A stretch of 55,851 nt of DNA from NCBI GenBank assembly GCA_903908245.1, contig CAIVRE010000023.1, forward strand, positions 1 through 55,851, written 5' to 3'. Below, piece by piece: positions 1 to 34,214 of this stretch. Position numbers and translations under genes: made by a program. Source of the stretch: Candidatus Omnitrophota bacterium. Its GTDB lineage: Bacteria; Omnitrophota; Gorgyraeia; Zapsychrales; Fredricksoniimonadaceae. Position 1 is the first letter of the stretch. The number at the start of each line of letters is the position of its first letter. Below the pieces are notes generated by a model. That model made no database searches. It was not told where the DNA came from and was given only the letters and a program-made list of their open reading frames with translations.

Positions 1-2370
1 CCATTTTACCCAAACCAGGATCAAATCTGCAAACTCAATTTTTCCCCAACATGTCCAATCGATGCTGACGCTCTACAGTCCGCGGTCTCCGCGCTGGCCG
101 CCATACCATTGGCGGCGGGAGAATCTTTTGACCCGACATCCACGTGGAGTGTCGTGGCTATTCTTTCTATCGGAGTTCCGGCGCTGGTTATGACTATGAG
201 ATATTGGACGATACAGCATTTCAAGTCGGTCCTACGGAAAACACAGGACCCGAAGGTTTTTTTCAAGGCGGCGGAGTCGTTGCGCTCTTTTGTGAAAGAA
301 GATGTTTGGCGTGATGAACTTCTGGCGCGTTATATGGATATGAACCCCGGGATCCGCGCGGCGGAGCGTGAGCTGTTTTCCAGGTTCGGTCAGATCGATC
401 CTTTATTTCGCTGGCTGGAGAGCAGGAATATCTTTGAGCAATTAAGACATCCCAATGCTCAGGTCCGGGATGGCGCAAAAGCCCTGATGGGGCAATTTCC
501 GTTCACTCCTCTGGAACGGGCCGAGGTCTGTCTTTTAGTGCTGGAAAGGGAATTGGGCCGGGATGTCCCTGCTTCTTTGAATATTGTCCAGGAGAATCTG
601 GCGGATCTTATTTCTTTCAGGAAGAAGGCCCGTTCCGCTTCAGTGGCCATGAATTCCCGGGAGAGGGCTTCGGCCGATTTTTTTGATCAGAAAATGATCT
701 ATATTCTTTCCAGGGTTTTGGGATGGGGGCCGGAGGCGTCTTTCCCTCTTGCCGTCAGCGGGCTTGATGAATTGGCCCCTGGGATGGAAAAGCATATCGA
801 TCTTTACCGTGATATCATTGAATCTTCGCCGAGATCGAAAGTCCGGATGGAGGTCTTTCAGCGCCTTCCGCTTCAAATGCAGAAAGAAATGGGAGACAGG
901 CTTTGGGACCGTTTCCGGGAGCCGCATATGTTCTTTGATGTATCGGTGCGGTTTTTCCTTGATACGGGCCTGGTCGGCCAGGGGCTTTTAACAGCCCGTG
1001 TTCTTGAGATCCTTAAGAAAAATCATTATATGCAGGATCCTCTTCGGGCTCCGCATATCCGGGCGCTTGAGACCCTTGGAGTGAAAGGTTTTTCGCAGGG
1101 CATGAGCCAGCGCCAGTTTGAGCAGGTCATTGATCAGGTCATGGCTTCTCAGCCGGACCGCGCCATGAGCCTTTCCGCTCTTTCTGTCCTGGCCGCGGCT
1201 CCCGTAGATCCGTCGGTGATCGATACGCTGGTGAACAGTCCTGTTGCCTGGGTTGTTGTGGGAGGGGTTGTTCTCGGCGCCTCTGTCGGCAGCGCTTTGC
1301 TGGTCCGGTACTGGAATATCCGGAAGCGTCAGCAACTGTTGTCCCGTGTTCATACCGGCAGCATGCCTTCTCGTATTGACGCGCTTATTGAATACAAAGG
1401 AAAAGTTCAGGAAGGTGCGGCCTATTATGAGTTTCTGGGGCTATTGAACGATCCATCGGCTGTTTTTATTTCCAGCGACCAGGAACGCCTGGAACAAGCC
1501 GGGTTTTCTTTCGGGAGATGGCTGGGTTATGACATGCCGGTCATGCTGATATCGACGGATAGCGAGGTCCGGGAACAGGCCAGGGGCCTTTTAAAGAACA
1601 AGGTTTCGCTGCTTGAGCAGGGGCTTGTACGGATCAGGGCGATCCATCGGGAGTATATGCGTCTTTCGAATACGAGGTATACGTATCGCACCAATGATAT
1701 TATCCTTGAGCTGGTTGATGACCTGTTAAGTGGCCGCAAGATCTTTCAGAATGCGGCCCTGGATCTGGAATTTGAAAAGGTCCTGCTGGAGCTGTTCCCT
1801 GTCGGGGATCTGCGTTCCATGCTCAAGATCAGGGACGCCCTGGTTGAACTGCGCCTGGGAAAGGACACATCCGATGCCAGCAGGACAGTGGTCCTGGGAA
1901 GGGTCAATGCGGAGCTTGGCGGCAAATTCCTGGAAAGGCTCAAACAGCCGTTGCCGGTCATGAACGTGAAGGATGTTGTTGTGTTCTTGTTGAATGTTAA
2001 CATTGGGAATCGGACCTTGATCCTTACGGATGTCATCAGCGTGCTGAGAAAACAGGGGCCTCAGATGGACGCATCTTTGAGAAAGAATTACAGCGATGCT
2101 TTGACGGCGTTGGGTTTGCCCGAGAAGGAGCAATGGCTGCAGGCGCCTTTGCTGGCGAAACCGGACGGGGACCGTCCGGATCCGTCCCAGGATATCAATG
2201 GTGGTATCGATGTCAGCGGCCTGAACGTTGAGCGTTCGGGGAAAGGTGTCGACGTTGTTTTTGATCCCGCCATGTTGACGGGATTTGCCAATGGCACGTT
2301 CAATGGGTTCACCCCCGTTATCGTTGGTTTTACTCCTGCCGGTAATATTCTTTCCGCGTTAGGGTTATGA
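1..2370 (+). CDS. Large modular protein of the GGID-tail family, 5'-truncated by the window; two diverged TM + helical-repeat modules and the conserved C-terminal GGID domain
   Basis: Frame 1 is open from base 1 (ORF track starts at 109). C-terminus GGIDVSG...GFTPVIVGFTP...LGL matches the tails of the ORFs at 16777, 21114 and 30792. A DRAM linker at 1156-1167 separates two similar modules. Confidence 0.75.
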   Translation, partial: PFYPNQDQICKLNFSPTCPIDADALQSAVSALAAIPLAAGESFDPTSTWSVVAILSIGVPALVMTMRYWTIQHFKSVLRKTQDPKVFFKAAESLRSFVKEDVWRDELLARYMDMNPGIRAAERELFSRFGQIDPLFRWLESRNIFEQLRHPNAQVRDGAKALMGQFPFTPLERAEVCLLVLERELGRDVPASLNIVQENLADLISFRKKARSASVAMNSRERASADFFDQKMIYILSRVLGWGPEASFPLAVSGLDELAPGMEKHIDLYRDIIESSPRSKVRMEVFQRLPLQMQKEMGDRLWDRFREPHMFFDVSVRFFLDTGLVGQGLLTARVLEILKKNHYMQDPLRAPHIRALETLGVKGFSQGMSQRQFEQVIDQVMASQPDRAMSLSALSVLAAAPVDPSVIDTLVNSPVAWVVVGGVVLGASVGSALLVRYWNIRKRQQLLSRVHTGSMPSRIDALIEYKGKVQEGAAYYEFLGLLNDPSAVFISSDQERLEQAGFSFGRWLGYDMPVMLISTDSEVREQARGLLKNKVSLLEQGLVRIRAIHREYMRLSNTRYTYRTNDIILELVDDLLSGRKIFQNAALDLEFEKVLLELFPVGDLRSMLKIRDALVELRLGKDTSDASRTVVLGRVNAELGGKFLERLKQPLPVMNVKDVVVFLLNVNIGNRTLILTDVISVLRKQGPQMDASLRKNYSDALTALGLPEKEQWLQAPLLAKPDGDRPDPSQDINGGIDVSGLNVERSGKGVDVVFDPAMLTGFANGTFNGFTPVIVGFTPAGNILSALGL

Positions 2371-2472
2371 TCCAAGGAAAGAGGGCGGATTGTCTTGATT
2401 GCACAAGGCCGGCAGGCAAGGTTATAATATTTAGAAATGTTGTTCGGGCGAGACCTTAAAAGGACGGTGCGA

Positions 2473-2880
2473 ATGCTTTTCGAATGGTCACCAAAATTCA
2501 TCCTTGGGGTTAAAGCCATTGATGACCAGCATCGCAAGCTGGTGGTTATTCTTAATCAGCTCGATGATCTCATCAAGAACGGCGCGCCACAAAGTGACAG
2601 CTGGGTGAGTATTTTCAATGAATTGCTGGAGTATGCGCAGTATCATTTCAAGACCGAGGAGGAATTGATGTTCGACCATTCTTTCGGTGGCCTTCAGGAC
2701 CATATCAAGGAACATGCTTTTTTCAGGTCCAAGATCACATCCCTGAAGAAAGGGCTGGATGCCAATGATCTGCATGCTATCGACGAGCTATTGTATTTCC
2801 TGATGGTATGGTTGCAGAACCATATCCTGGTCGTCGACAGGCGCTGTTGTGTTTTTCTTAATCAAGAAGGAGTGGTGTGA
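2473..2880 (+). CDS. Bacteriohemerythrin
   Basis: W...GVKAIDDQH, HFKTEEELM, HIKEH and WLQNHILVVD di-iron motifs; start chosen at ATG 2473. Confidence 0.9.
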   Translation: MLFEWSPKFILGVKAIDDQHRKLVVILNQLDDLIKNGAPQSDSWVSIFNELLEYAQYHFKTEEELMFDHSFGGLQDHIKEHAFFRSKITSLKKGLDANDLHAIDELLYFLMVWLQNHILVVDRRCCVFLNQEGVV

Positions 2881-3236: not shown

Positions 3237-3342
3237 CCTTTCCTGCTTTAAGAGTTATAATCTCCGATCGTTGAAATGTTCCAGATCCTTTTACGACAAA
3301 TCAAAGTCTAACGTGGTTAGAAACAACAAACGGGAGGGCTTT

Positions 3343-4056: not shown

Positions 4057-4084
4057 GTTATTTGTTTTGGGTTGGATTTATACA

Positions 4085-12165: not shown

Positions 12166-12178
12166 CAGGAGAAACAGC

Positions 12179-13330: not shown

Positions 13331-13333
13331 CAA

Positions 13334-13358
13334 GTAGGGGCGGCCCTTGCGGCCGCCC
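13334..13358 (+). repeat. GTAG REP-like palindrome
   Basis: GTAG-GGGCGGCC-CTTGC-GGCCGCCC, 25 bp, between cusB and cusA. Confidence 0.7.
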
Positions 13359-13382
13359 GGTGTATATACGGAGAATGATTTT

Positions 13383-16776: not shown

Positions 16777-19700
16777 ATGTTGCGAAAATTCTTTAAGAAG
16801 ACTGTTTGTTATATAACATTAGCGGCGTTCATTGTTATGAACGCGGGCCAGTCGTATGCCCAGTCTTTAACATTGCCTGCGCCGGGCATTCCGGTGGCAT
16901 TGTCGCAGGCCTTTCAGCCTGTCAATCTTAAAGGCATCAAGATCGATCCTGTCAATCCGCTGAGGTTCGATTTTATTATTGATAAAGGGACCTCCTTCAC
17001 CCCCGGGATGAAGGAGGTTGATTATCGGCTGATCAAATATTTTCTTGCCGCATTGACTGTTCCTGAAAAAGACCTTTGGGTCAACCTTTCGCCTTACGAA
17101 AAAGACCGTATCATCCCCGATGCATTTGGCCTGACGGAAATGGGCCGTGATCTTTTGGGGCAGGATTATATCCTTAAGCAGATCACATCCAGTTTGATGA
17201 ATCCGGATGACAATACCGGCAGGTCTTTTTGGAAGCGTGTTTACGAGGAGGCTTACAGGAAGTATGGCACAACGGATATTCCGGTCGATACTTTCAATAA
17301 AGTGTGGATCGTTCCGCAGGAGGCCAGGGTCTATGAACACAATGGCGCCGCGTTCGTCGTCAAAGCCAGGCTGAAGGTAATGTTAGAGACCGATTATCTT
17401 GCCATGCGTGTTGCGCGTGCAGGGGAGGGTTCCCAATCCTCCCAACAAGAAGCTCCCCGACAAGAAAGTTCCACACAGGACATATCCCGGCAGATCATTC
17501 GCGAGGTGATCCTTCCTATCCTTGAAACAGAGGTCAACGAAGGCCGGAATTTTTCCCGGTTACGGCAGATCTATAACGCCATGATCCTGTCGACATGGTT
17601 CAAGGTGAGTTTGAAGCAGAGCCTTGTCGGCCAGGTTTATGCGGACAGGAACAAGGTCAAGGGTATTGATATCGATGATAAAGATGCCAAGCTCAAGATC
17701 TATGATCAGTACCTTGCCGCGTTCCGAAAAGGGGTCGTTAATATTATTCGCGAGGAGAAAGATACAGTTTCTGACGAGGTTATTCCCAGAAAGTATTTTT
17801 CGGGAGGGTATTCGGCTACTGGTGCCGATGGCACCCGTTTGTCCGAGCTGGTCGGCAGGGATAAGGTGAACAGCCGGGACCGGTTATCCTCATCCGACCT
17901 TGCGTCGTTAACTGAAGGTGATTATTCGGAAGTCACGGTTGATCTCTCGGGTGATCATCGGGGCGCGGCTGTATCCAGGCCAGACATGGCCGCGCAATCG
18001 TCCGGTCATTTGACGGGCCAGGGCCGTGTGCATTTCAAGGATCCGGTGTATCTCAATGAGGCGAGTTCTTTTGCCAATGATAAAAGGTCTTTTCTGGACA
18101 GGCATTATATGCAATGGCAATGGCTTCAGCAGAAAGCCATGCCTTATCTTATCCGTCGGGCACTGGGACGCGCCCAAGAGGCCAAGGCAAGGCCGAGGCT
18201 GGTCGTGGCGGATCTCGGGGCCAGTACGGCCGAGGAAATGGCACGGATATTTTATGAGGTCACAATGGCCCTGGAAGTATCCGGGCAGGTTTTAAATGAT
18301 TGGGACCTGCAGGTCAATGGTTTTGAGATCGATCCGCAGATCGTTGCCGAGGGGAATAAACGGATCGGGGGCAGACAGCCTTTCTTTCGTGCACGCAGTA
18401 AAGAAGAACAGATCATGATCGATGGCCGATATTATGCCGACCGGATCATCGAGCGGTTGAACCAGTATGCCGAGAAATTTCAGGCCAGCGCAAGGCTTTT
18501 GAAGCAGGATATTCTGACGATCCCTTCCGGGGACCTGGCTGACGCGGACCTGGTCGTGTTGAATCACGTCCTGCGGATCTTTAAAGAAGAGGATCGCGGG
18601 GCGCTTGTAAAAAATTTGAGCCTGGACAGCTCCCATGCCATCCTGGCGGTCGGTGATTCATTGCTGGCGGGAGAAGCATGGAAATCCCGGGCGGGGGAGC
18701 ATATTTTTGTTGAGTCAGAAGGTTCTTCCGGAGGGACGCGTTATTCGTTCGGCCTGCCGGAAGAAGCGCTTGATGAAATCGACCTGTCACAGGCTTCCGG
18801 GTCGTCTGACCGTGCCGAGGCCGGCCCTTTGCCGCTCAAGCGGCAGTTGGCTGTTGAGACATATTTGAAATTGCGCAATGACCCTGACCCCGGAAAAGTG
18901 AGGATACGGGACCGGTATGTGATCGATCTTTTATCGGCGGCTTTCAAGTCGCCGAGACTTTTCGGACAATTGTCCGGTTATCTTTACGCCCGGTTGAATG
19001 TAACGACGAGTGATCAGGACAAGAAGGATCTTGTCCAGATATTGGCCTGGATGGGGGATCAGGGATTGCCGAAGTTCCTGGGGACGTTTGGAGAAGGGGC
19101 CTGGGATCTTTCGTTTGATGCCGCGCGGTATATTGACAATGGCCTGACCATTGAGGAAGAATTGAAGGCTGTTGCTCCGCTGGATATCAGGGTTGATCTG
19201 TCATGGATGAGCAAGGGTGTTTTTCAGGATGAGCGCCTTGTTTATGAAAGCAGCCGGGAAGACTTTCTTGACAATGATGTCAGGGTCAAGGTCATGATCC
19301 GCCGCGACGCGAAAGGGAGGCGGATCATTGAAAAAAGATTTACTGTCGACGGAGAGCGGGTCACGAAAGATACCCTGGAAATGGAACAGAAATGGATACA
19401 GGATTATCTGGCGTTGAAGTGGTTTAAAAAGCTTGGGTTCAGGGTCCCGGATGTGGTTTTAGTCCGTGAGGAAGGGGCCCTGCTTTTACGGGAAGTATTT
19501 ATTGAGGGCGCACAGACCATTGAAGAAGCATATCCTCAAAGAGACGGCGATATTCCGTCTTTTGTAAAGAAACAGCTTATTCCTTTTGGTTTGGCCGGGG
19601 TTGCGGCCTTAAGTTATGACATGCATCCTGGCAATTATTTGTTAAGTGGTCTGGACAAGGCGCGGGGGACGGGTGATGTTATCGGCATTGACATGGAGCA

Positions 19701-21027
19701 TTCTTTTGCCCCCTGGCCGGGGAAAGATGCGGAAGATGCTGTTTACGATATGCTTAAAGGGCCGTTCGGGCGAGGGGATGGAAATGTTGAGGAGATGCTG
19801 GGGTTGATGGGATTCAAGGACCTCAGGCACGGGTTCGGGTTGAGCCGGCAGGATCAGGACACATATTATCAATTACGGCGGCTGGCGACCCGGATCGCGC
19901 GTTTTTCTGATGAGGAAATGATCGAAATGGCCAAGGAGGCTTTTTCGCACTGGGGCGGTAAAAAGGATGGGCCGGTGGTCAGGAAATTGATCAACGACTG
20001 GCTTAAGGCCAAGGGAGCAGTGGGGGATTTCTTTATGGTTCCGCCGGTGCAGGCGGACCCCGCGATGAGCCAGTTCAAGGGGCTTATAAATCCGCAGACT
20101 CCTGATTTTTCGAGGATGATCAAACTTGGTAACGGCGGGCAAGGGGATGTTTATCAGGATCCGGATGATCCGTCAGTTTTTTATAAAGAAGCGCGAGCGG
20201 ATCCCCGTGAGATCAGGAGCACCAAGCGTTCGGCCGTGTATCTTCGTCAATTCAACCGGGTAGAGCGTGTGAGCGGTATTCCGGAACTTCTGGAGGTCGG
20301 TGGTGATGGGCGCAGCGGCTTCTGGATGAAATTGCGGGGCATTCCGCAAGGCGTGAGCCTGGACAAGGCTCCGTTGTTCTGGTTCGCCATGCCGATCCGT
20401 CAGAAGATCGATATTGTGACGCAGATCATCCGTATCCTTGAACGATTGCATGGGTTGGGCCTGGTGCATAATGATATTAAGCCGGCGAATATTGTTGTGA
20501 ACAAGGGCGGGGAGGTGATGCTGATCGATTATGGCGAAACAAACAGGATCCGCAAGAATCGCCGGGGTTTTTCACAGGGATATTCTTCCGAGGAGGACCA
20601 GGGCAGTGTCGTGTCCGATATTTACAGCCTGGGCAGGACCATGGCCTATATCTTGTCCGAGCATGATGCGTCAGATCCGGTCTTTGAGGCGCTCGATCCC
20701 GAGGTCGATCGATTGGTCAAAAGGATGACGATGTGGCAGGCGGCGCAGAGGTCGCCGCGCACGATGGAAGGTGTCCGGGAAGAATTAAAGAAGATCGCCG
20801 GCCGTGTGGCGGATCTTGAGCGATCAGGCGTTAGTGATGTGGGGGGTATCGATCTGACGGCAGGCCGGACCGGCCTTCAGATCCTGCGCGATGGCAACGG
20901 CGCACTGATCGCGATGTCGCCGCAGACCATTCAGAATATTGATATTGAAGGCTTCTATCCCGTGATCATTAATATCGTGCCGGTTATAAGCATGAAGGCT
21001 CTTTTGGGCCTTTCCATTTCTCCATAA
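16777..21027 (+). CDS. Large modular secreted protein: conserved N-domain + CheR-like methyltransferase + PI3/4K/HipA-like kinase + Ser/Thr kinase + GGID tail
   Basis: Signal peptide (SYA-Q); N-domain to PRKYFSGG (17808); ADLGASTAEE/GFEID/DLVVLNHVL; DMHPGNYL...IDMEHSF; LGNGGQGDVY/HNDIKPAN/IDYG; GGID at 20842. Confidence 0.8.
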   Translation: MLRKFFKKTVCYITLAAFIVMNAGQSYAQSLTLPAPGIPVALSQAFQPVNLKGIKIDPVNPLRFDFIIDKGTSFTPGMKEVDYRLIKYFLAALTVPEKDLWVNLSPYEKDRIIPDAFGLTEMGRDLLGQDYILKQITSSLMNPDDNTGRSFWKRVYEEAYRKYGTTDIPVDTFNKVWIVPQEARVYEHNGAAFVVKARLKVMLETDYLAMRVARAGEGSQSSQQEAPRQESSTQDISRQIIREVILPILETEVNEGRNFSRLRQIYNAMILSTWFKVSLKQSLVGQVYADRNKVKGIDIDDKDAKLKIYDQYLAAFRKGVVNIIREEKDTVSDEVIPRKYFSGGYSATGADGTRLSELVGRDKVNSRDRLSSSDLASLTEGDYSEVTVDLSGDHRGAAVSRPDMAAQSSGHLTGQGRVHFKDPVYLNEASSFANDKRSFLDRHYMQWQWLQQKAMPYLIRRALGRAQEAKARPRLVVADLGASTAEEMARIFYEVTMALEVSGQVLNDWDLQVNGFEIDPQIVAEGNKRIGGRQPFFRARSKEEQIMIDGRYYADRIIERLNQYAEKFQASARLLKQDILTIPSGDLADADLVVLNHVLRIFKEEDRGALVKNLSLDSSHAILAVGDSLLAGEAWKSRAGEHIFVESEGSSGGTRYSFGLPEEALDEIDLSQASGSSDRAEAGPLPLKRQLAVETYLKLRNDPDPGKVRIRDRYVIDLLSAAFKSPRLFGQLSGYLYARLNVTTSDQDKKDLVQILAWMGDQGLPKFLGTFGEGAWDLSFDAARYIDNGLTIEEELKAVAPLDIRVDLSWMSKGVFQDERLVYESSREDFLDNDVRVKVMIRRDAKGRRIIEKRFTVDGERVTKDTLEMEQKWIQDYLALKWFKKLGFRVPDVVLVREEGALLLREVFIEGAQTIEEAYPQRDGDIPSFVKKQLIPFGLAGVAALSYDMHPGNYLLSGLDKARGTGDVIGIDMEHSFAPWPGKDAEDAVYDMLKGPFGRGDGNVEEMLGLMGFKDLRHGFGLSRQDQDTYYQLRRLATRIARFSDEEMIEMAKEAFSHWGGKKDGPVVRKLINDWLKAKGAVGDFFMVPPVQADPAMSQFKGLINPQTPDFSRMIKLGNGGQGDVYQDPDDPSVFYKEARADPREIRSTKRSAVYLRQFNRVERVSGIPELLEVGGDGRSGFWMKLRGIPQGVSLDKAPLFWFAMPIRQKIDIVTQIIRILERLHGLGLVHNDIKPANIVVNKGGEVMLIDYGETNRIRKNRRGFSQGYSSEEDQGSVVSDIYSLGRTMAYILSEHDASDPVFEALDPEVDRLVKRMTMWQAAQRSPRTMEGVREELKKIAGRVADLERSGVSDVGGIDLTAGRTGLQILRDGNGALIAMSPQTIQNIDIEGFYPVIINIVPVISMKALLGLSISP
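17419..17443 (+). repeat. Degenerate REP-like palindrome within the coding sequence
   Basis: GCAG-GGGAGGGTT-CCC-AATCCTCCC; same position in the protein as the copy at 21792. Confidence 0.6.
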
Positions 21028-21113: not shown

Positions 21114-24100
21114 ATGTTCTCTGCAGCATTTAAAAGTTCAAGGCTGGTCCGATTTATTTCATTATGGCTTGTTTTTACCCTTTCCCTTCCGTTGCAACAG
21201 ATCCATGCGCAAACGGCCCTGGATTTGCCGGCGCCAGGCACAATGATCGGGATCAGTTCCGCCTATATTCCGGTCATGATGAAGGGTCTCAAGGTCCATC
21301 CTGAAAATCCACTTTTGTTTGATTTTATCCTTGATACAGGAAGATCCGGGCTTAAGACGGACGCAGGGGAATTCAAGGCCGAATCTGAAAAACTCATTAA
21401 ATATTTTCTTGCTTCCATTACGATCAAGGAAGACGACTTATGGGTTAATTTGTCGCCGTATGAACATGATCGCATGATCACGGAAGATCTGGGCAGGACC
21501 GAGCTTGGCCGCGATATGCTGGCCCAGGATTACATTCTTAAACAATTGACATCTTCTCTTATTTACCCTGAAAAGGATCTGGGTAAAGAGTTCTGGAAAA
21601 GGGTTTATGCCCAGGCGCAGGAGAAGTTCGGTTCAACGGATGTGCCGGTAGATACTTTTAATAAAGTCTGGATCGTTGCGGATAAGGCCAGGGTATTGGA
21701 GCGTAATAATACGGCGTATGTCGTCGGGGCCAATTTAAAAGTCATGCTGGAGGCCGATTATCTTGCCATGCGTGTCGCGCCAGTTGCGCATGTAGGGGAG
21801 GGTTCCAAACCCTCCCTCCAAGAACCATCCCCCCAACAAGACGTTCCCACACAGGATATATCCCGGCAGATCATCCGTGAAGTGATCATTCCGGAGATCG
21901 AGAAAGAAGTCAACCAGGGCCGGAATTTTGCCCCGTTACGCCAGATGTTTTATTCCATGATCCTGGCAACATGGTATCGACAGGCGTTGAAAGGGGCTTT
22001 CTTAAATCAGGTTTACAGTGATAAAGCAAAGACAGGTGGTGTTGAATCGGACGATCCGCAGGTCAAAGAAAAGATCTATGCTCAATATCTGGAAGCTTTT
22101 AAAAAAGGATCTTTTAATTACATTAAGGAAGAGGTCAATTCTTCAGGCGAAACTTTCCCAAGGAAATATTTTTCCGGAGGGTTGGCTCCTGATCTGGGTG
22201 TTCATCGGGTCATAAATATTGAAAAAGAACCTCAAGCGGACGATGACCTTTCGGCAGATGGCTCCATGGCCAATGTCCAAACGAATATGGCCGTAACGCA
22301 AGGCCGTAATGAGGCCATGGCGGAGCAGGTTGAGCGCGCGTTCAAGGCGAAGACGGCCGAAGGGTTCGTGGCGGATATCCATAATGATTATCTGGTTGAC
22401 GCTCCGGAGCGGCTGCAGAAGATCGCGACTTATATTACGGATACTGATCCGTATTTTACCAGGAGCATCATGACGCCGGAGCGGCTTACGTCGCAATGGA
22501 CAACGGAAGAGCTGATCAACAGTGCGGGGAAGAAATATACGGTGGATGTCTTGAACGTCCGCGCCGCGAACAGTTCCGCTCGGGGTGTGCCCAAGGGCGG
22601 TATTCGTGCTTTGTTGAATTATCTGGATAAGAGCCCGGAAAAAGAAGGGGCGCGCACGGCCAGTGATCTGATGCGGGATCCGGCGTTCAGAAAGGCTTTC
22701 GCCTGGCTTAATGAATTGGCGCCTACGGAAGGGCAGGTCAGGGCATTTATCCAGAAATGGATCGAGGAAGAGGCCAAGGCTTTATCATTGTGGATGTCGT
22801 TCAAGACCTCTGTTTTGGGGATCCCCCTGGGAGGAGGCAAAGGTGTTTTCTTTGTCGGGCAGATCAGCAAAAATTCCGACGGGACATTTTCAATAGCGGA
22901 TACAGAGCTTTGGCGGGACACGGATCAAGAGAATAATGCGCGGATCTCGCGGAGATATGTCCGGATCCTTTACGCGGCCGAGAGTGTCGGGCCGGATATC
23001 GATGTTCCGGCTCCGGACAAGCGGACGGATGGTGTGTCCATGGGATTTTTGACGGATGAATATATCCTTTTAAACCTGAAGGTGATCCAGAAGCGCGATC
23101 CGGCGCTTTACAACCGCCTAAAAGCGGCTTTGGACACGGCAACGGCAAATAATGGCGGTGTTTATCCGACAACGAGCACGGTCTTGGTGGAAGAGGCCAA
23201 CCGTTATTTGCATGAAACGAATGTGCCGGTGCCGGAATTGGCTGTTTTTACCGGAAAAAAGATCGAGCATGGCGGTGCTTTGGGAAGGACAGAGGCTACG
23301 GGTTTTGGCGTGGCGTCCACGATCCGCAATGTTCTGAAGGCTAAAGGCGTTGACATTCGCGGCAAGACACTTGGGCTTCAGGGGGCCGGAAATGTGGCCC
23401 TGTATGCGGCTCTTCAGGCGGTCCGGGATGGAATGATCGTCCAGATCCTGGCGGATGAAGGGACAACGCTTATCAAGAAAGATGGTTTCTCCGAGAAAGA
23501 GATCCTGGAGTTGATCCGTCGTTTTGAAAAGAACAAGGAAAAGATGTACCAGATCTGGAGGCAGGTTTTCTCTGCCGACAGTGTGGTCGCTGTTGAAGGC
23601 GATCGTGACGCCCAGGGTGCGGCGGTGTTGGAAGCGGATGTCGATGTATTAAGCCCTTGCGCGACCGAAGGGGTCATTACAGAGAAGAACGCCGGGCGGA
23701 TCAGGGCAAAGTTCATTGTTCCCGGTGCAAATGGTCCGATCACGTCGGCCGCATTGAAGATGCTTGAAGTGAATGGCATTATTGTTGTCCCCGACACGTT
23801 AACGAACGCGCGGGGTGTCCTGGTCTCTTATTTTGAACAGGTCCAGGCCTTGACGGGGCATATTTTTACAGCGGAAGAAGTTGCTTTGATCGCCGAGCGT
23901 GTTCATACGGCCGCATTTGCTGTGATGTGGGCTGAAAAGGAGAAAAGAGGGGTTTCTTTGACCGTGGCGGCGGATATTGTTTCGGCGCAGGGGATCATCC
24001 GGGCGCAATATCTGGGGTTGATCAAACGATTTAACGGTGATCTTAAAAAGATCAGTGACGAGCGCGGGTATGGAGAGTCTGAAAACAATCTTCGTCAGCA

Positions 24101-25760
24101 GATCGAAGCGTCGGGCCTGTCGGCTTATCTGAAGGCGATCGGGAACGATTCCCTTAAGATACGCGTTGTCAATCAAGGTGACGAGCCGGCAGTAAAAGCC
24201 GCATTGTCGTCCGCTGATGTTATTATCGCCGGTTCTTCTGTCCAGGCAAAGTCGTCATTCTTTATCAGTAAAAAAATGCTGGGAGAGATCGGGGAAGGGA
24301 AGCGGATCATTGATACGGTTGTCGATCAAACGAATGTTTTTGAAGACGGGAACACGGCACCCGGGGTTTGGCCAGGACAGCCTGCCTGGCTTGATGAACA
24401 CGGGAATTTGCGTTTTACTGTCGCGCATATGCCGGCAGTGTTCGGTTCCGTGGCCGCTGAACTTTTATCGCAGGCGACACAGGCGTTGACAAGAGAAATA
24501 GTCGCCGGAACTGCTCCGCGGAATGTTTCCGGGCTGCGTAGCGGCATCGTTGTTGCTAATGGCCGGTCTGTCAGTCGGGAGGCTCCGGTCACGGATGAAG
24601 AGTTCCTGAACCTGTTCACAACTTCGGATGGCCGGAAACGGACGATCGGTATTCCCAAAGAACGGTGGGCCGGTGAAACCCGTGTTGGCGCTACTCTGGA
24701 GGAGATCAAGGAATTCGTCGCTTCAGGTTATGAGGTCTTGGTCGAGCAGGGAGCCGGGGCAGCCAGCAGGATATCGGATATTGATTTTCAAAGGACCGGG
24801 GCAAAGATCGTTACGCGCAATGGCGTCTGGGGGGCGGATGTGATCCGTAAGGTTAAGTCTCCTTTAGCGGAAGAGTATCAATATTTTCGGCCGGGCATGA
24901 TCCTGGAATCATTTCTTTTCCTTGATCGTCCGGAGAACCAGGAGTTGAAACAGGAATTAACGGGCAAGGGAGTGACGGCTGTCGCTTATGAAGAGGTCAG
25001 GAAGTCGGGGCATCGCACGTTGCTTGACCGGGTGTTCTTTATGGAGGATGTCGGGGCCCCGGAAGATGAAGGGCGTTATATTCTCGATCCAATGTCACGG
25101 GTTGGCGGTTATGTCGCTGTTCTTTGGGCGGCGTTGTATGGCCGGGCGGATGTGAATGGCCGCGGGACAAAGGGATCATACAAAGACCTGGTCGGCGGGG
25201 ATGGGCTTCTTGAGACGTCTGTTGTTCAGGAGCGGCAGTTGCACCTGGACAGATTCCTGGCGAATATCGGGACTCATTTGCAGGAATTTGTCACCCATGG
25301 TTACGGGTTGCCTCCGGGATTGCTTAGGGATACAGGGATGGAGAGCCGGCTGGGCAAGGTCGTTGTCCTGGGCGGGACTTTGACAGCCCGTGAAGCCGCG
25401 TATTTAAGTTTGCTGTTCGGTGCGGAGAATGTTGAAGTGCTTGTTGCCGATGAGAATGAAAAGGACCTTCTGGAGCGACAATTCCGAAAAGCCGGATTAT
25501 TGAGGGATGTTGATCCGGCGGGGGCGGCAGATGATGCTGTAGCGGGAAAACCGGATATTCAGGGTGGTATCGACATGAACGCCAAAAATATGGAAATGGA
25601 TGTGTCCAGAGAAGGCAGAGGGGTCGAGGCCGGGCTTGACCCTGTTATTCTTGAGCAATTCAAGGGCGGTGATTTTTCCGGTGTGGTGCCGGTCATTATT
25701 CGTATCACGCCGGTCGCGAGCCCGATAGCAATTCTGGGAATGGAAGCAAGCCCGCCGTAA
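21114..25760 (+). CDS. Large modular secreted protein: conserved N-domain + Glu/Leu/Phe/Val (glutamate) dehydrogenase + circularly permuted alanine-dehydrogenase-like domain + GGID tail
   Basis: Signal peptide (IHA-Q); N-domain to PRKYFSGG (22181); KGGIR, MSFK, GGGKG, DVPAPD, GRTEATGFG, QGAGNV, GANGP, VSYFE; AlaDH-like IGIPKE...ETRV, KVKSP, PMSRVGG; GGID at 25563. Confidence 0.82.
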   Translation: MFSAAFKSSRLVRFISLWLVFTLSLPLQQIHAQTALDLPAPGTMIGISSAYIPVMMKGLKVHPENPLLFDFILDTGRSGLKTDAGEFKAESEKLIKYFLASITIKEDDLWVNLSPYEHDRMITEDLGRTELGRDMLAQDYILKQLTSSLIYPEKDLGKEFWKRVYAQAQEKFGSTDVPVDTFNKVWIVADKARVLERNNTAYVVGANLKVMLEADYLAMRVAPVAHVGEGSKPSLQEPSPQQDVPTQDISRQIIREVIIPEIEKEVNQGRNFAPLRQMFYSMILATWYRQALKGAFLNQVYSDKAKTGGVESDDPQVKEKIYAQYLEAFKKGSFNYIKEEVNSSGETFPRKYFSGGLAPDLGVHRVINIEKEPQADDDLSADGSMANVQTNMAVTQGRNEAMAEQVERAFKAKTAEGFVADIHNDYLVDAPERLQKIATYITDTDPYFTRSIMTPERLTSQWTTEELINSAGKKYTVDVLNVRAANSSARGVPKGGIRALLNYLDKSPEKEGARTASDLMRDPAFRKAFAWLNELAPTEGQVRAFIQKWIEEEAKALSLWMSFKTSVLGIPLGGGKGVFFVGQISKNSDGTFSIADTELWRDTDQENNARISRRYVRILYAAESVGPDIDVPAPDKRTDGVSMGFLTDEYILLNLKVIQKRDPALYNRLKAALDTATANNGGVYPTTSTVLVEEANRYLHETNVPVPELAVFTGKKIEHGGALGRTEATGFGVASTIRNVLKAKGVDIRGKTLGLQGAGNVALYAALQAVRDGMIVQILADEGTTLIKKDGFSEKEILELIRRFEKNKEKMYQIWRQVFSADSVVAVEGDRDAQGAAVLEADVDVLSPCATEGVITEKNAGRIRAKFIVPGANGPITSAALKMLEVNGIIVVPDTLTNARGVLVSYFEQVQALTGHIFTAEEVALIAERVHTAAFAVMWAEKEKRGVSLTVAADIVSAQGIIRAQYLGLIKRFNGDLKKISDERGYGESENNLRQQIEASGLSAYLKAIGNDSLKIRVVNQGDEPAVKAALSSADVIIAGSSVQAKSSFFISKKMLGEIGEGKRIIDTVVDQTNVFEDGNTAPGVWPGQPAWLDEHGNLRFTVAHMPAVFGSVAAELLSQATQALTREIVAGTAPRNVSGLRSGIVVANGRSVSREAPVTDEEFLNLFTTSDGRKRTIGIPKERWAGETRVGATLEEIKEFVASGYEVLVEQGAGAASRISDIDFQRTGAKIVTRNGVWGADVIRKVKSPLAEEYQYFRPGMILESFLFLDRPENQELKQELTGKGVTAVAYEEVRKSGHRTLLDRVFFMEDVGAPEDEGRYILDPMSRVGGYVAVLWAALYGRADVNGRGTKGSYKDLVGGDGLLETSVVQERQLHLDRFLANIGTHLQEFVTHGYGLPPGLLRDTGMESRLGKVVVLGGTLTAREAAYLSLLFGAENVEVLVADENEKDLLERQFRKAGLLRDVDPAGAADDAVAGKPDIQGGIDMNAKNMEMDVSREGRGVEAGLDPVILEQFKGGDFSGVVPVIIRITPVASPIAILGMEASPP
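21792..21816 (+). repeat. Intact GTAG REP-like palindrome within the coding sequence
   Basis: GTAG-GGGAGGGTT-CCA-AACCCTCCC; one base different from the copy at 28208. Confidence 0.75.
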
Positions 25761-27586: not shown

Positions 27587-28224
27587 TGTTAAGCTCTTTG
27601 CGGAGCTGGGTTGACCGGATATTTTATTCTTCAGCCGGAGAGACCTTGCGGGGCAAGGCTCTCCGGCTTAATGCGATCTACCGTTCTTTGGACAAAGAGA
27701 TATTTCGCTTTAAGGCCGCTTCGAGGATCGCGTGTCCCAGTCCTTGCGGCCAATGCTGTGTTAATTCAACCGTAGAAGCTTCCGAACTTGAAATGCTTCC
27801 GATGGCTTTTGAGCTTGTCCGTCTGGGTAAGGCGGATGAATGGTACGGCAAAGCGGAAGCGAAGGATTTTGAAGGGCAATGCGTTTTTTACAGCTCGAAC
27901 GACCTTTTGGGGCAGTGTTCGTATTATGCGTTTCGTCCTTTGGTATGCCGCCTGTTCGGTTTTGCCGGGAACAGGGATAAATACGGCCGGCCGCGCCTGG
28001 TGACCTGCGGGCGGATCAAGAAAGAGCACCCTCTGGGGATGGAACAGGTTCTGGAGAATGTTGCCAGTGGCCGGATCGTTCCGCCGATGATGAGTGACCT
28101 GGTCATGCGCGTTTCATCGGTGGATCCCGCGCTTTCCCGTGAAAGTATTCCCGTGAATATGGCGTTCAAGAAAGCTGTCGAGCGGGTTTTGTTAGGTCAA
28201 CAGTTGAGTAGGGGAGGGTTCTAA
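27583..28224 (+). CDS. YkgJ-family cysteine cluster protein
   Basis: CxxxCGxCC, then CVF...[15 protein letters not shown]. Confidence 0.85.
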
Positions 28225-28232
28225 ACCCTCCC
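28208..28232 (+). repeat. GTAG REP-like palindrome overlapping the YkgJ-family gene stop
   Basis: GTAG-GGGAGGGTT-CTA-AACCCTCCC; contains the TAA stop at 28222-24. Confidence 0.75.
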
Positions 28233-28259
28233 TTGAGAAATTTTAAAAGGGGATTTCCA

Positions 28260-30011: not shown

Positions 30012-30051
30012 GGGGGTCGTAAGTTATTTTTGCCTGTCCCGACCAAAAGGT

Positions 30052-30645
30052 ATGAGAGTATTCCTGTCCCTCCTCATTTGCCTGGGGGTGTTGATGACCG
30101 AACCGCAAGCCGCTCCGTTGCAGAAAGCCACATTTGCGGGAGGCTGTTTTTGGTGCATGCAGCCGCCGTATGATAAACTTGCCGGAGTTGTTTCAACGAC
30201 CGTTGGATATACCGGCGGGAATGTGCCCAACCCCACGTATGAACAGGTTTCTTCCGGGATGACCGGCCATTTGGAAGCTATCCAGGTGGTTTACGACCCG
30301 TCGCAAACGTCTTATCGTGAATTGCTGCGTGTTTTCTGGATGTCGATCGACCCTACCGATAATGGCGGGCAGTTCGCGGACCAGGGTTCGCAGTATCAGC
30401 CGGCTATTTTTGTTCATGATGAACAACAGCGCCTGGAGGCCGAGGCATCCAAGAAGGAATTGGCTGCGTCAGGCCGTTTTAAGAAGCCGATCGTGACAGC
30501 CGTTTTACCTGCCAAAGAGTTCTATCCGGCGGAAGCCTATCATCAGAAGTATTATCAGAAGAATTCACCGCATTATAATGCTTACAAGGCCGGTTCCGGC
30601 AGGGCCGGGTTCATCGAAAAGTCCTGGCCCGAGGCTCATCGTTAA
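30052..30645 (+). CDS. msrA: Peptide methionine sulfoxide reductase A, with predicted signal peptide
   Basis: FAGGCFWC, VGYTGG, GHLEAIQV, GGQFADQG, FYPAEAYHQKYY; hydrophobic leader from ATG 30052. Confidence 0.93.
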   Translation: MRVFLSLLICLGVLMTEPQAAPLQKATFAGGCFWCMQPPYDKLAGVVSTTVGYTGGNVPNPTYEQVSSGMTGHLEAIQVVYDPSQTSYRELLRVFWMSIDPTDNGGQFADQGSQYQPAIFVHDEQQRLEAEASKKELAASGRFKKPIVTAVLPAKEFYPAEAYHQKYYQKNSPHYNAYKAGSGRAGFIEKSWPEAHR

Positions 30646-30647
30646 GG

Positions 30648-30704
30648 AAAAAACCGGGACACATTGCATTTTTGTGTAAAAAATGCAATGTGTCCCGGTT
30701 TTTT
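30648..30704. repeat. Perfect 26-bp inverted repeat (terminator-like / GGGACA-TGTCCC element)
   Basis: AAAAAACCGGGACACATTGCATTTTT - GTGTA - AAAAATGCAATGTGTCCCGGTTTTTT immediately after the msrA stop. Confidence 0.85.
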
Positions 30705-30791
30705 GTCTGGGCTTCTTGGATGGTTTTTTAACTATTTATAATTTATACTTATTAAAGGTTTGGGCAAGGGTGTATTTACAGGAAAAGGGCT

Positions 30792-33700
30792 ATGATTTAT
30801 CTGGATTTCTTCAAGAAAAGCATTACATGGCTTGTTCTTGTGGCTTTTTTAGTCACCGGGGTGCCAGGGGCTTATGCCCAGGAAGCCCTTATACTTCCTG
30901 CAGCAGGAAGCCGTTTGGCATTGAGCCCCGCGTTTGTTCCGCCGTTACTTAAAGGGATCAAAGTTTATCGTAACGACCCTTTCCGTCTTGATTTCATTCT
31001 TGATCAAGGCGATGCCGTTGACCCGGGCCCGCAGTTGAAAAATGAATCGGATCGTTTGATCAAATATTTTCTTGCCTCGCTCACTGTTCCTGAAAAAGAC
31101 TTGTGGGTCAACCTGTCGCCTTATGAAAAAGACCGTATTGTCCCCGATGCCTTTGGCCAGACGGAAATGGGGCGTGATCTTCTGGCCCAGGATTATATTC
31201 TCAAACAGATGACCGCGTCCGTTATTTATCCGGAAGGAGATGTTGGCAAGGTTTTTTGGGCAAAAGTCTATGCGGAAGCCCAGAAACGTTATGGCACGAC
31301 AGATATGCCGGTCGATACGTTCAACAAGGTTTGGATCGTCCCTGAAACAGCGACGGTTTATGAGAATAGAGATGCGGCATTCGTTGTTGAAAGCAGACTT
31401 AAGGTCATGCTGGAATCCGATTATCTCGCGCAGGAACAAAATGCTGGGATCCCAATGCCGGCCGAAGTCCCTCATGGGAATGTCCAGTCGCACAACGATA
31501 CGAAAGAGATCCTCCGCGAGATCGTTATCCCCATTCTTGAGAAAGAGATCAATGAAGGGAAGAATTTTGCTCAATTGCGTCAGGTTTACAATTCCCTTAT
31601 TCTTGCCGCCTGGTATAAACGAAAGATAAAGAAAAGTTTGATGGGAGAGGCCTATGCGGATAAGAACAAGACCGCAGGCGTTGAGATCAGCGACAAGAAA
31701 GAAAAAGACAGGATCTGGGCGCAGTATGTTGAGGCGTTCAAGAAGGGCGTTTTTGATCTGGTCAAAGAAGAAAAAGACGAGCTGTCCGGCGAAACCGTTC
31801 CGCGCAAATATTTCTCCGGCGGTGTCGGCGCGTATCGCATTGGAAGTGTTCTGCGGGAGACTTCGGACCCATCCATGCTGCCGTCCGATAGCCGAGGGAG
31901 GATGGTGATCGCGGCCAGTTTTAAGGTGGCGGATGCTTCGGCCTCTTCGGATCTGTCCGGGGATGACCGTGTTATGCGGGCCTCTGCCGCAGGATACAAG
32001 AAGTACCTGGAGGCGAAGGTCCGTTTGAGATGGGAGGACCTTCCCCGGGAGGCCAGGGAAATCATTGAACAGGCGGATATGGAAAGCCTTGTTGTTATGG
32101 CACAGAATGCCGCGGGTGAGGCGGATTATTTGTTTGAGTACGGATTTGTCGCTTTAAGAAAGATCCTTACCCTGGAAGAGATCAGAGCATTCTGGCCGGA
32201 TCTGGTCAGGATGACTGCGGCTTCAAGAGAGCAATCAGGCGAGCTTTTTCATCGAGGGCTTCCGGCATTAAAACAGGCATTGGGGAACGATCTGTTCAAG
32301 GCGTATTGGCCTGGGCTGACGAATGCGGTCCAGATTGCAGGCTGGTATTCTTCGGTTTTTCTGCAGTTCGCTTTCTCGTCGGTACGAAATATTGTTACAG
32401 CAGAGAACATTAATGAGGTGGGAGAGAGCCTCTCGGGCATTTCCCGATTGGAAGGCGGCGATCCCGGAGCATTTTATCAGTATGCGCTTCCTGCTATTGC
32501 CAGAAGGATCAAGTCCGTCAGTGATTTAAAGTTTTGGATCGATCGGCTTAAGCAGGCGGTCCGATCGATGGACATTGAACAGGAAGGGCTGTTCGTCGGG
32601 TATTTGGATAATGATCGTTTTGTCGATGATCTTCAGGCCATGAAGGATGAGACCGCGTCCAATCCTTTCGGGATCGCCCGCCTTTTGCTGGAATATGCGG
32701 CAGGCCGGCGGGAGGTTTTGCATATATTCCTTGAGCCATGGGCGTTTAGCCATGCCGGCGAGTTAACGCCGGCGCTTTCGGAACAGATCGCGTTATCTTT
32801 TCAGATGACACAGGAATTGAAGTATTTCTTTTATTATATCTCTGTTAACAGCCATACTCGCCAGGATACCCGCCGGAAAGTAAAAGATATTTTAAAAGCC
32901 CTTAGATCGCGCAATGTTTTTTCTTTGCATGGGCCTGTAGAAAGGTTGCTGGCCAAAGGAGAAAAAAGGGTCCTTATCGTTCAGAACATCGATGATGGCG
33001 TCGGGGATGAACAGGTCCGTGTGCTGCCGATCTTAAACGGGCTTTTGGCGTTGAATCCGGAGCTTAACGTGAAAATTGTTACCGGGAAGCCCGATCTATA
33101 CAATCACCCGAGGGTGACGGTGCTTTCGATAGATGAGGTCTTTTCAGCTGTTTTGAAGCATGCCATTGATATTCAGACGGCATCGTATGATGCGGTGATC
33201 AATTTTTATGATGAGAATCTGCCCTCGTATAGCCGGTCGCTGGAGATGGCTGTCAGGGCCCGCGATAAAGGAAAGATTTTTATCACGACAGGACGGGGGC
33301 GGGAAGATACTTTTATTTTTGATAAAGTTTTTGTTGAAGGCTCGGAATACGCTTTATCGTTAGGGTTGAACCAGGCAAGGGTTGACAGTGTGTATGAGCC
33401 GGGGTTTCGTCTTTTGGCGGAATTGGGGCTGCCTGTTTCAGCCGGCGGTGTTGTCTCCCGGGAAGGCTCGGCCATGACGGCTCTTCTTTATCCTGTCGCC
33501 GAAACGCGGTGGCGCGAGGCCATGACAGCGTTGAACAATGAGAAACATACAAGCCCGGTTATTCTTTTTAGCCCTTATGGTGGTCAATTGGAAGCGAAAG
33601 GATTTACTCGTAGTGAGGCGGATCGCGAAGAATTGCGTGATATTGTTACAGAGATCGTGAAGAAAGGGAACAAGGTTGTTGTACTCGCTAATGGGACTTC

Positions 33701-34214
33701 CTGGGGTACCAGGGAAACTGCCGAAGCGTTACAGGCAAGCCTTCCGGATGATGTCCGTTCGGAAGTCTTTGTCGTTGATCCCGGAAAAGATTTTCGGCTT
33801 CCGACTTATTTTTCCGCGTATGCGGATCTTAATTTGATGGTCGAAGGCAAGATGGCTCACACGGCAGGGAATATCGGGAAACCATTCCGCGTATTTTTAA
33901 AACCTGGCGCCAGCCAGCGGAGATGGATCCCGTATGGCCAGGCAGAGCATGGCGTTGTCGATGATATCAGCCAGGTCCTGGGCCGTCTTCAGGCACAATG
34001 GACCGCCAGGTCCGATCGGGCGACGGTCATGAAGGGTGGTATTGACCTTGATCCTGATAGAATGAATTTGAATATGAAAGATCCGGTCGAGCCGCTGGAA
34101 TTTAATTTTACCCGGGTCCAGTTCGAAGCGCTCAATGCCGCCTCCGGCGTTAGCCCTGTAATCATAAATATCATCCCGCTGGAAGACCTTCGTACATTCC
34201 TTTCTGTCCCGTAG
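30792..34214 (+). CDS. Large modular secreted protein: conserved N-domain + helical domain + GT9 (heptosyltransferase-like) domain + GGID tail
   Basis: Signal peptide (AYA-Q); N-domain to PRKYFSGG (31823); RVLIV...GVGDEQVRVLPILNGL...PELNVKIVT and ADLNLMVEGKMAHTA resemble GT9; GGID at 34035. Confidence 0.78.
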   Translation: MIYLDFFKKSITWLVLVAFLVTGVPGAYAQEALILPAAGSRLALSPAFVPPLLKGIKVYRNDPFRLDFILDQGDAVDPGPQLKNESDRLIKYFLASLTVPEKDLWVNLSPYEKDRIVPDAFGQTEMGRDLLAQDYILKQMTASVIYPEGDVGKVFWAKVYAEAQKRYGTTDMPVDTFNKVWIVPETATVYENRDAAFVVESRLKVMLESDYLAQEQNAGIPMPAEVPHGNVQSHNDTKEILREIVIPILEKEINEGKNFAQLRQVYNSLILAAWYKRKIKKSLMGEAYADKNKTAGVEISDKKEKDRIWAQYVEAFKKGVFDLVKEEKDELSGETVPRKYFSGGVGAYRIGSVLRETSDPSMLPSDSRGRMVIAASFKVADASASSDLSGDDRVMRASAAGYKKYLEAKVRLRWEDLPREAREIIEQADMESLVVMAQNAAGEADYLFEYGFVALRKILTLEEIRAFWPDLVRMTAASREQSGELFHRGLPALKQALGNDLFKAYWPGLTNAVQIAGWYSSVFLQFAFSSVRNIVTAENINEVGESLSGISRLEGGDPGAFYQYALPAIARRIKSVSDLKFWIDRLKQAVRSMDIEQEGLFVGYLDNDRFVDDLQAMKDETASNPFGIARLLLEYAAGRREVLHIFLEPWAFSHAGELTPALSEQIALSFQMTQELKYFFYYISVNSHTRQDTRRKVKDILKALRSRNVFSLHGPVERLLAKGEKRVLIVQNIDDGVGDEQVRVLPILNGLLALNPELNVKIVTGKPDLYNHPRVTVLSIDEVFSAVLKHAIDIQTASYDAVINFYDENLPSYSRSLEMAVRARDKGKIFITTGRGREDTFIFDKVFVEGSEYALSLGLNQARVDSVYEPGFRLLAELGLPVSAGGVVSREGSAMTALLYPVAETRWREAMTALNNEKHTSPVILFSPYGGQLEAKGFTRSEADREELRDIVTEIVKKGNKVVVLANGTSWGTRETAEALQASLPDDVRSEVFVVDPGKDFRLPTYFSAYADLNLMVEGKMAHTAGNIGKPFRVFLKPGASQRRWIPYGQAEHGVVDDISQVLGRLQAQWTARSDRATVMKGGIDLDPDRMNLNMKDPVEPLEFNFTRVQFEALNAASGVSPVIINIIPLEDLRTFLSVP

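Follow-up and report, generated by a model that had tools for sequence, protein, structure and literature searches.

A D-x-A-M tetrapeptide at module boundaries in a family of signal-peptide-bearing multi-enzyme proteins of Omnitrophota

In MARTX toxins, conserved N- and C-terminal parts frame variable modules, and the modules are released at sites in the linkers, between X-Leu and a small residue. We describe here a similar layout in a protein family encoded four times within a 55,851-nt stretch of DNA from Candidatus Omnitrophota bacterium (assembly GCA_903908245.1, contig CAIVRE010000023.1), which we call the window. The family architecture is a signal peptide, an N-module of ~375 amino acids (aa) containing KYFSGG, a variable enzyme cargo, and a tail of ~60 aa that starts with GGID. 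A short motif, D-x-A-M, is found at almost all junctions where the enzyme modules of this family adjoin its conserved ends; it is real, residue-specific, confined to boundaries and to the family, and selected at the amino-acid level. The likeness to MARTX toxins lies in the constant ends, the string of unrelated modules and the short sites in inter-module linkers, which here are putative cleavage sites. The differences are that the window proteins have neither Peptidase_C80 nor RTX-type repeats (Pfam/NCBIfam scan), that they carry a Sec-type signal peptide and not a type I secretion signal, that the site is D-x-A-M, and that the cargo consists mostly of housekeeping-type enzymes.

Long precursors with a repeated short boundary site are also found among gingipain/HagA-type proteins and among viral polyproteins cut by 3C-like proteases at a Q/E site; these are unrelated to the present family in sequence, fold and taxon, and no family-encoded protease was found here. 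A C-terminal domain of ~60 aa with a short site 5-10 residues upstream recalls the type IX C-terminal domain (CTD)/PorU, LPXTG and PEP-CTERM systems. The GGID tail, however, has no Pfam or NCBIfam match (specifically, Por_Secre_tail and TIGR04183 were not matched by the window tails at E 0.01 or better), and the same site also follows the N-module and separates modules. Short peptides at a constant/variable border are known as well from polymorphic toxins, as VENN in CdiA and DPxGL in Rhs; here, in contrast, the variable parts are internal, often multiple and enzyme-like, the motif is repeated, and no immunity-gene logic was seen.

The same phylum encodes giant proteins called 'Archaeovorins', which the describing preprint presents as having tens of thousands of aa, many transmembrane segments and a C39 or S8 peptidase near the N-terminus; whether they are cleaved is asked there, and the cleavage points are given as unknown (West-Roberts et al. 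2023, 10.1101/2023.11.21.568195). Their listed cargo domains, HATPase_c, Radical_SAM, PPDK_N, NUDIX and HEAT, are a further point of likeness (10.1101/2023.11.21.568195), whereas the window proteins are only 1548 aa long at most, the shortest being a cut one of at least 789 aa, and contain no peptidase family. A frame resembling these giants is present in the genome studied here: the whole of contig C8 (67,427 nt) is taken up by a single minus-strand open frame of 22,400 aa, which matches Peptidase_C39 close to its N-terminal end. This separate gene has no N-module, no GGID tail and no D-x-A-M enrichment (4 observed, 4.0 expected), and thus the motif belongs to the N-module/GGID family and not to that giant. 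Full-text literature searches, which extended to preprints but not to their supplements, returned no description of the family or the motif, and a 2026 Omnitrophota preprint (10.64898/2026.06.07.730766), in its available part exclusive of the supplement, makes no mention of cleavage, linkers, motifs, proteolysis, polyproteins or processing.

Enrichment of the motif in the N-module/GGID family

The four window proteins, P0001, P0003, P0004 and P0005, are encoded on the plus strand, share the GGID tail and all match the pattern GGID...P-V-I-I-x-I-x-P over ~60 aa. A hydrophobic, signal-peptide-like leader and a domain of ~315 aa ending in PRKYFSGG are common to P0003, P0004 and P0005, with N-domain hidden Markov model (HMM) scores of 438-567 bits; the N-terminal end of P0001 is cut off by the contig start. 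At E 0.01 or better, Pfam and NCBIfam matches in the four proteins fall in cargo only (a Ser/Thr kinase in P0003, GDH and an AlaDH-like part in P0004), there being none for the N-domain, the tail, P0001 or P0005, and the remaining cargo parts match Pfam below threshold or not at all. Searching with the N-domain of P0005 (E 0.001 or better) returned at least 4,671 proteins of 627-1,995 aa and 1,131 longer relatives of 1,996-5,000 aa. The near-length relatives come mostly from Omnitrophota metagenome bins, and the Pfam families in their cargo are many and different.

The motif was counted in two sets. The near-length set comprises the best 120 relatives plus three window proteins, of which the 108 with the KYF[ST]GG anchor were counted and 15 dropped; the long set comprises the best 120 of the 1,131 longer relatives, 111 of them with the anchor. 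In the near-length set, D-x-A-M occurs 82 times in the 75-aa linker after the N-domain (2.3 expected), 14 times in the 20 aa before the tail (0.5 expected), 35 times in the tail (1.1 expected), 24 times in cargo (8.3 expected) and twice in the N-domain itself (3.4 expected). The corresponding strict counts for the long set are 99 against 2.4 in the linker, 29 against 0.7 before the tail and 212 against 25.8 in cargo. An unbiased enumeration of all gapped 3- and 4-letter words, scored against the cargo rate, placed D.AM at the top for the post-N-module linker (82 observed, 2.07 expected), and the top-ranked words before the tail were D.AQ, D.AM and D.AE. Q or E takes the fourth position in 35% of the linker copies and in 52% of those before the tail, and the wider class D-x-[AS]-[MQE] is present at least once in 96 of 108 linkers and in 55 of 104 pre-tail stretches of the near-length set. 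Pre-tail copies mostly lie 5-10 residues before GGID, with unconserved flanks. A family alignment has up to four copies after KYFSGG: directly behind it, within [ST]-x-D-x-[AS]-[MQ]-L-P, where a beta-strand begins (DRAM-IV), and 1-10 residues past the same strand.

The first-pass annotation of the window had drawn attention to eight tetrapeptides resembling D-x-A-M, each said to follow an S/A/P/G-rich spacer and to lie between domains or just before the tail. All eight are present where it placed them, and their codons differ. Two are the consensus (DRAM at 1156, DPAM at 20056), one is N-x-A-M (22308) and one is D-x-A-E (18808), while DMAA, DRVM, DDAV and DRAT are one-residue departures at places where relatives carry the motif, i.e. 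where the N-module linker ends or 8-11 residues ahead of GGID. In the alignment, DMAA, NEAM and DRVM occupy the last position after KYFSGG, and DRAT and DDAV occupy the pre-tail position. The coordinates, the codon differences and, through the relatives, a family-wide motif therefore stand; enrichment of the loose pattern within the window does not. A class covering all eight, [DN]-x-[AV]-[MAEVT], gives 25 matches in the four window proteins against 24.9±4.8 in 500 shuffles, so that the window alone could not have established the motif; strict D-x-A-M gives 3 matches against 0.7. The exceptions that the annotation had named are also real, the motif being missing between the GDH and AlaDH parts and before the tail of ORF 16777 (P0003). 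Its claim of domain-to-domain placement may hold in the window at the kinase, GDH and AlaDH, which Pfam recognises, and extends less surely to the other, sub-threshold or unmatched cargo parts, and its S/A/P/G-rich spacer reduces to a short dip in hydrophobicity (hydrophobic fraction 0.15-0.22 within ~3 residues on each side, background 0.35).

The genome to which the window belongs (2.16 Mb, 92.4% complete) has 26 ORFs (open reading frames) with the N-domain and 21 tails, making ~27 family genes, and its ORFs include family members of 3,232 and 5,164 aa. An N-terminal hydrophobic leader is present in 26 of the 26 N-domain ORFs. This genome uses a weaker D-x-A-[E/M] form of the motif: D-x-[AS]-[MQE] is found 18 times in linkers against 4.0 expected (13 of 26 linkers) and 10 times before tails against 1.4 (9 of 21), and DRAE alone occurs 6 times in the family proteins, with 0.64 expected, at linker, pre-tail and internal junctions including that at 18808. 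Across the phylum the family is patchy, being found in 5 of 81 sampled genomes, this one included; all five belong to a single class, and in three the number of matches is 15 or more.

Placement between cargo modules and residue specificity

In long relatives the motif recurs within the cargo. At least one internal D-x-A-M is present in 72 of 114 long members and three or more in 32, with a maximum of 11. Among 140 gaps between successive sites, 88 measure 151-500 aa, and 18 do not exceed 30 aa (tandem sites); the median of the gaps over 30 aa is 326 aa. For 16 of the 120 long members, which were picked for having several precomputed Pfam domains and hence not blindly, not one of the 52 cargo sites falls within a Pfam envelope, where 11.6 were expected (p 2e-6); the envelopes cover 22.3% of the cargo, which is a lower bound because only the best stretch per family was used. 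The preference for boundaries over domain interiors, on which the first-pass annotation had staked its proposal, is thus borne out. Individual cases illustrate it: sites at 698 and 971 flank the PP2C domain of P0198, the guanylate kinase of P0202 has a site 8 aa ahead of it, another follows the TIM of P0201 by 9 aa, and one falls at the last residue of HATPase_c in P0208. Placement at domain edges is seen likewise in the near-length members P0042, P0047 and P0062. As for the nature of the modules, the cargo that follows the signal peptide in P0126-P0245 includes TIM, class-I aldolase, GAPDH, isocitrate lyase, malate synthase and PPDK, as well as radical-SAM/B12 enzymes, SNF2 helicases and repeated M48+ABC1 pairs.

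Each position of the motif has its own selectivity in the long-set cargo. At position 1, D is strongly favoured (212 observed, 27 expected), N is accepted (42, 18 expected) and E is barely enriched (42, 30 expected). Position 3 is A only, and position 4 is M only (Q 58 against 50, E 43 against 87). R, A, Q, S and G are preferred at position 2, where the beta-branched residues I, T and V are rare. M is followed by T/N/L/A and then A/S/T/G, a sequence that may resemble ordinary protein N-termini, and apart from these small or polar residues the flanks are unconserved.

The enrichment is specific to the family. The 103 family ORFs of 80 loci taken from GTDB genome records contain 165 sites where 15.6 were expected, whereas the 592 non-family ORFs of the same loci show no D-x-A-M enrichment (25 against 23.6 expected), nor does the non-family proteome of this genome (54 observed, 74.5 expected). 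The pair D.A, with a gap of one, is depleted in homologue cargo (221 observed, 323 expected, ratio 0.68), which hints, if weakly, at avoidance of the site in module interiors.

Codon use was compared at 149 sites. Asp codons match the background (GAT 100, GAC 49; p 0.54). Ala codons number 59 GCC, 65 GCG, 9 GCA and 16 GCT, against 102 GCC, 74 GCG, 28 GCA and 32 GCT at other Ala-Met pairs (p 0.048), a skew that is largely a general codon-pair effect. With Asp codons at background, all four Ala codons in use and the codon of the x position varying, selection acts on the amino acids and not on a DNA or RNA signal, as the first-pass annotation had judged from the varied codons of the window copies.

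Proposed cleavage and competing explanations

The structural setting of the motif was examined in P0005. The AlphaFold2 (AF2) model of residues 27-423 has a mean predicted local distance difference test (pLDDT) score of 76.8 and a predicted template modelling (pTM) score of 0.79; the full-length model is poor (mean pLDDT 54) and served only for confidence and secondary structure along the chain. The N-module extends to ~residue 378, and within a stretch of pLDDT 84-90 the copy DPSM forms a short helical turn and RMVIAAS a strand. Residues 388-401, including DRVM, are below 50 and lie between the ordered N-module and the first cargo helix; the linker is predicted to be flexible in this one modelled case. 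In the full-length model the pre-tail region is likewise below 50, and the tail, at 62-72, has a strand followed by a helix, the latter where the family DPAM aligns. With the N-module model as query, Foldseek gave nothing at E 0.001 or better (the weak top rows, at E 0.2-1, were NheA, MakB and MakE), and a VIA-wide fold search reached a best Z of 3.4, with latherin/SPLUNC1 at ~2.3-2.9. A PDB sequence search with the N-module returned 0 matches at E 1 or better, and a search of the ESM Atlas gave unnamed Omnitrophota clusters only. LexA, signal peptidase and Tsp-like chains (S24, S26, S41) are not among the fold matches, all of which are weak. In an alignment of 50 sequences, the N-module has an invariant Ser (S109 of P0005) and an invariant Lys (K138), a pair that alone is not evidence of a Ser/Lys dyad.

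Our leading reading, held tentatively and at somewhat less than an even chance, is that D-x-A-M would be recognised by an endopeptidase dedicated to it, which would cut an exported precursor at each junction; the cleavage itself, the bond cut and the enzyme responsible are what we infer. The precursor would be exported by way of its signal peptide, with the N-module at the head of a string of cargo modules; the endopeptidase would then cut at D-x-A-M in each short hydrophilic linker, and the cargo modules would be released from the N-module and the tail. Cleavage is the simplest account and is preferred in view of the strict four-residue core, the unconserved hydrophilic linkers around it (predicted flexible in the case modelled), the bracketing of cargo, the freedom of domain interiors from sites, and the restriction to the family. 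Ser/Lys-dyad peptidases typically have Ala at P1, as does the site that CtpA cuts in the D1 precursor. The Met/Gln/Glu alternation seen here, in turn, is reminiscent of 3C-like enzymes and of a P1 pocket that takes unbranched side chains. Both are leads, not tests. An extended scenario seems doubtful to us. In it, certain Omnitrophota lineages would export cytoplasm-type enzymes, among them glycolytic enzymes, kinases, methyltransferases and radical-SAM proteins, as polyprotein strings targeted to Sec, each headed by a carrier N-module; the modules would be released outside the cytoplasm, or inside a host or prey cell, by an endopeptidase specific for the A-M bond of D-x-A-M, possibly the N-module itself acting through its invariant Ser and Lys.

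Several observations weigh against cleavage. No protease was identified and none is universal to the family; when the neighbours of the 27 family genes were clustered, no recurrent partner or protease emerged; and no protease-like fold was detected for the N-module (Foldseek at E 0.001, best VIA Z 3.4). Some copies are predicted to be structural and not exposed, since the N-module extension has pLDDT 84-90 and the in-tail DPAM position starts a helix. There are long members without any internal D-x-A-M (42 of 114) and clear junctions that lack it, e.g. aldolase/GAPDH in P0201 and GDH/AlaDH in the window. The motif is also degenerate in this genome, with strict D-x-A-M in 0 of 26 linkers and 0 of 21 pre-tail stretches; D-x-[AS]-[MQE] is not enriched in its cargo (17 against 26.9 expected), and the D.A depletion there is weak (0.87).

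Much of the same evidence on position, specificity and flexibility would fit equally well if the motif were never cut and instead served for docking of a common partner (a chaperone, an export or sorting factor, the N-module or the tail), so marking every module for its handling in the course of Sec export or afterwards. Repeated and tandem copies would suit avidity, and copies do also lie within ordered parts of the N-module and tail. We nevertheless consider docking unlikely, as there is no recurrent neighbour gene and no known partner, and a docking role does not call for so sharp a bias towards module starts in which M is followed by small residues. Still less credence is due to a purely structural role, in which each copy would act as a helix N-cap or a turn at the beginning of a module and would shield adjacent domains from one another as they fold, with no recognition by another protein. 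The helical turn at DPSM and the helix starting at the DPAM-aligned tail position in the P0005 models are in its favour, and the alternation of M, Q and E is reminiscent of position N3 in a capping box, but the helix-rich ordinary proteins of the same genomes have no enrichment (both control sets above), internal sites are strictly M and not E or Q, tandem copies 6-20 aa apart make little sense as caps, and the linker copy of P0005 is predicted to be disordered.

Two explanations place the origin of the motif in the genes. If the Met were the captured start of a cargo gene, or an internal translation start, and D-x-A its upstream context, one could account for internal sites being strictly ATG (149 of 149), for the M standing 2-16 residues ahead of position 1 in the Pfam profile of the following enzyme in P0202, P0198 and P0047, and for the apparent resemblance of the residues after M to native N-termini. 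Yet selection on D and A is at the amino-acid level (the two Asp codons at the background ratio, E/GAR barely enriched, N/AAY accepted), M gives way to Q or E in copies of the linker and pre-tail regions and of this genome, some copies are tandem and others stand directly before the tail, with no cargo starting there, and reading frames are open across thousands of members. In P0004, M402 of the GDH module lies ~67 residues upstream of the equivalent of the native GDH N-terminus. A Shine-Dalgarno sequence is found at 11 of 149 motif ATGs and at 8 of 69 presumed real starts, a comparison without power. We regard such relic or internal starts as improbable, and the captured Met fails as a general rule, given Q/E at position 4, the tandem and pre-tail copies and the M402 offset. 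It is far less probable still that the motif is a recombination junction, i.e. a DNA sequence used for swapping cargo cassettes between family genes. The highly varied cargo on a constant frame does indicate that cassettes move over evolutionary time, but there is no nucleotide conservation beyond amino-acid needs, and the window paralogues, at 65-77% nucleotide identity, have no junction repeat. Of the first-pass interpretation, the processing site is accordingly consistent with all findings at the strength given above for cleavage, while DNA-level shuffling finds no support in codon use or in the window paralogues. That the eight window instances were picked after the fact from a loose pattern fits the chance-level count of that pattern in the window proteins; at the family level chance is refuted and hardly worth entertaining, with enrichment of 8- to 40-fold in two sets of 120 relatives and in the 103 genome-record family ORFs, and with flat controls.

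Window features, gene neighbourhood and significance

The coordinates of the family genes and of the motif copies in the window are collected in the table, which includes copies beyond the eight first proposed. For the kinase of P0003, Pkinase profile position 95 aligns with residue 1205.

Table. Family genes, tails and motif copies in the window
Feature	Coordinates	Strand	Description
P0001	1..2370	+	family member cut by contig start; at least 789 aa; translation, tail HMM match
DRAM	1156..1167	+	strict consensus; start of the second module of P0001
DPSQ	2179..2190	+	pre-tail copy of the D-x-[AS]-[MQE] class, 7 residues before GGID; absent from the first-pass list
GGID tail of P0001	2200..2367	+	tail HMM; in-tail copy DPAM at 2263-2274
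P0003	16777..21027	+	1416 aa; signal peptide, N-module, cargo, GGID tail 20842-21024
DYSE	17920..17931	+	start of the last beta-strand of the P0003 N-module; relatives have DRAM-IV here
DMAA	17983..17994	+	decayed copy, end of the P0003 N-module linker; relatives have DMAM here
DLSQ (18781) and DRAE (18808), tandem	18781..18819	+	between the first and second cargo parts of P0003
DPAM	20056..20067	+	strict consensus, ~15 residues before the inferred kinase domain start of P0003
P0004	21114..25760	+	1548 aa; signal peptide, N-module, GDH, AlaDH-like part, GGID tail 25563-25757
DGSM	22257..22268	+	start of the last strand of the P0004 N-module
NEAM	22308..22319	+	N-x-A-M class; N-module/cargo boundary of P0004
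DDAV	25530..25541	+	weak, decayed pre-tail copy in P0004, 11 residues before GGID
P0005	30792..34214	+	1140 aa; signal peptide, N-module ~residues 27-378, cargo without Pfam match, tail 34035-34211
DPSM	31866..31877	+	ordered copy in the P0005 N-module extension, family position [ST]-x-D-x-[AS]-[MQ]-L-P
DRVM	31965..31976	+	flexible N-module/cargo linker of P0005; closest relative P0006 has DQAM there
DRAT	34014..34025	+	decayed pre-tail copy in P0005, 8 residues before GGID

The window proteins themselves have some peculiarities: (i) P0001, as far as it is preserved, consists of two weakly similar helical modules, each with a hydrophobic segment ahead of it, followed by the GGID tail (internal repeat E 1e-4). 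A transmembrane-like hydrophobic segment follows the motif in some members (P0001, P0012, P0013, P0063), an example being DRAM-SLSALSVLAAAP...RYWNIRK in P0001, with a similar unit at the window start; if these post-motif segments span the membrane, cargo modules may lie on alternating membrane sides. (ii) The cargo of P0003 begins with a weakly methyltransferase-like part, continues with a part without Pfam match and ends with the Ser/Thr kinase. (iii) The AlaDH-like part of P0004 is permuted, with AlaDh_PNT_C (1020-1152) ahead of AlaDh_PNT_N (1179-1300). (iv) A hairpin-like 26-mer, GTAGGGGAGGGTTCyAAACCCTCCCT, lies in the variable loop of the P0003 and P0004 N-modules (17419-17444 and from 21792), and a third copy (28208-28233) is at the end of ORF 27583-28224, the copies being 85-96% identical.

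No protease is encoded among the other genes of the window. The proteases found in this genome are two M48, two S41 and one C39, the last within the 22,400-aa frame, and no S8 is present in this assembly of 92.4% completeness. One M48 gene lies ~1 kb from a family gene and came into consideration as the processing enzyme; it forms an ordinary-looking pair with an ORF that is LemA-like by eye, and we treat its position as coincidence. An msrA gene is directly upstream of P0005 and an msrB gene further downstream (29824-30645 and 54288-54818). Genes for one or both also adjoin family genes in 3 of 80 related loci (L049, L060, L031), two of which are syntenic with each other; three loci plus the window are too weak a basis for linking MsrA/MsrB to the conserved Met. 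Elsewhere in the window, long ORFs overlap on opposite strands (28233-30011, plus, 592 aa; 28221-29858, minus, 545 aa), with no Pfam match in either, and the regions 10876-16607 and 44207-54258 provide a context of a CusCBA-type heavy-metal efflux system and an [FeFe]-hydrogenase with NuoF-like, HydF and radical-SAM maturase genes.

The family is very large, yet its N-module and tail have no Pfam or NCBIfam model. For annotation and structure prediction, the motif supplies a practical rule for cutting family proteins into modules. It also sharpens a puzzle, in that enzymes needing cytoplasmic cofactors sit behind a signal peptide. A strict, boundary-specific tetrapeptide gives a concrete hypothesis on the dismantling or handling of these proteins. 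If the extended scenario of exported, Sec-targeted polyproteins is true, the family would represent a previously undescribed bacterial system for polyprotein processing and delivery.

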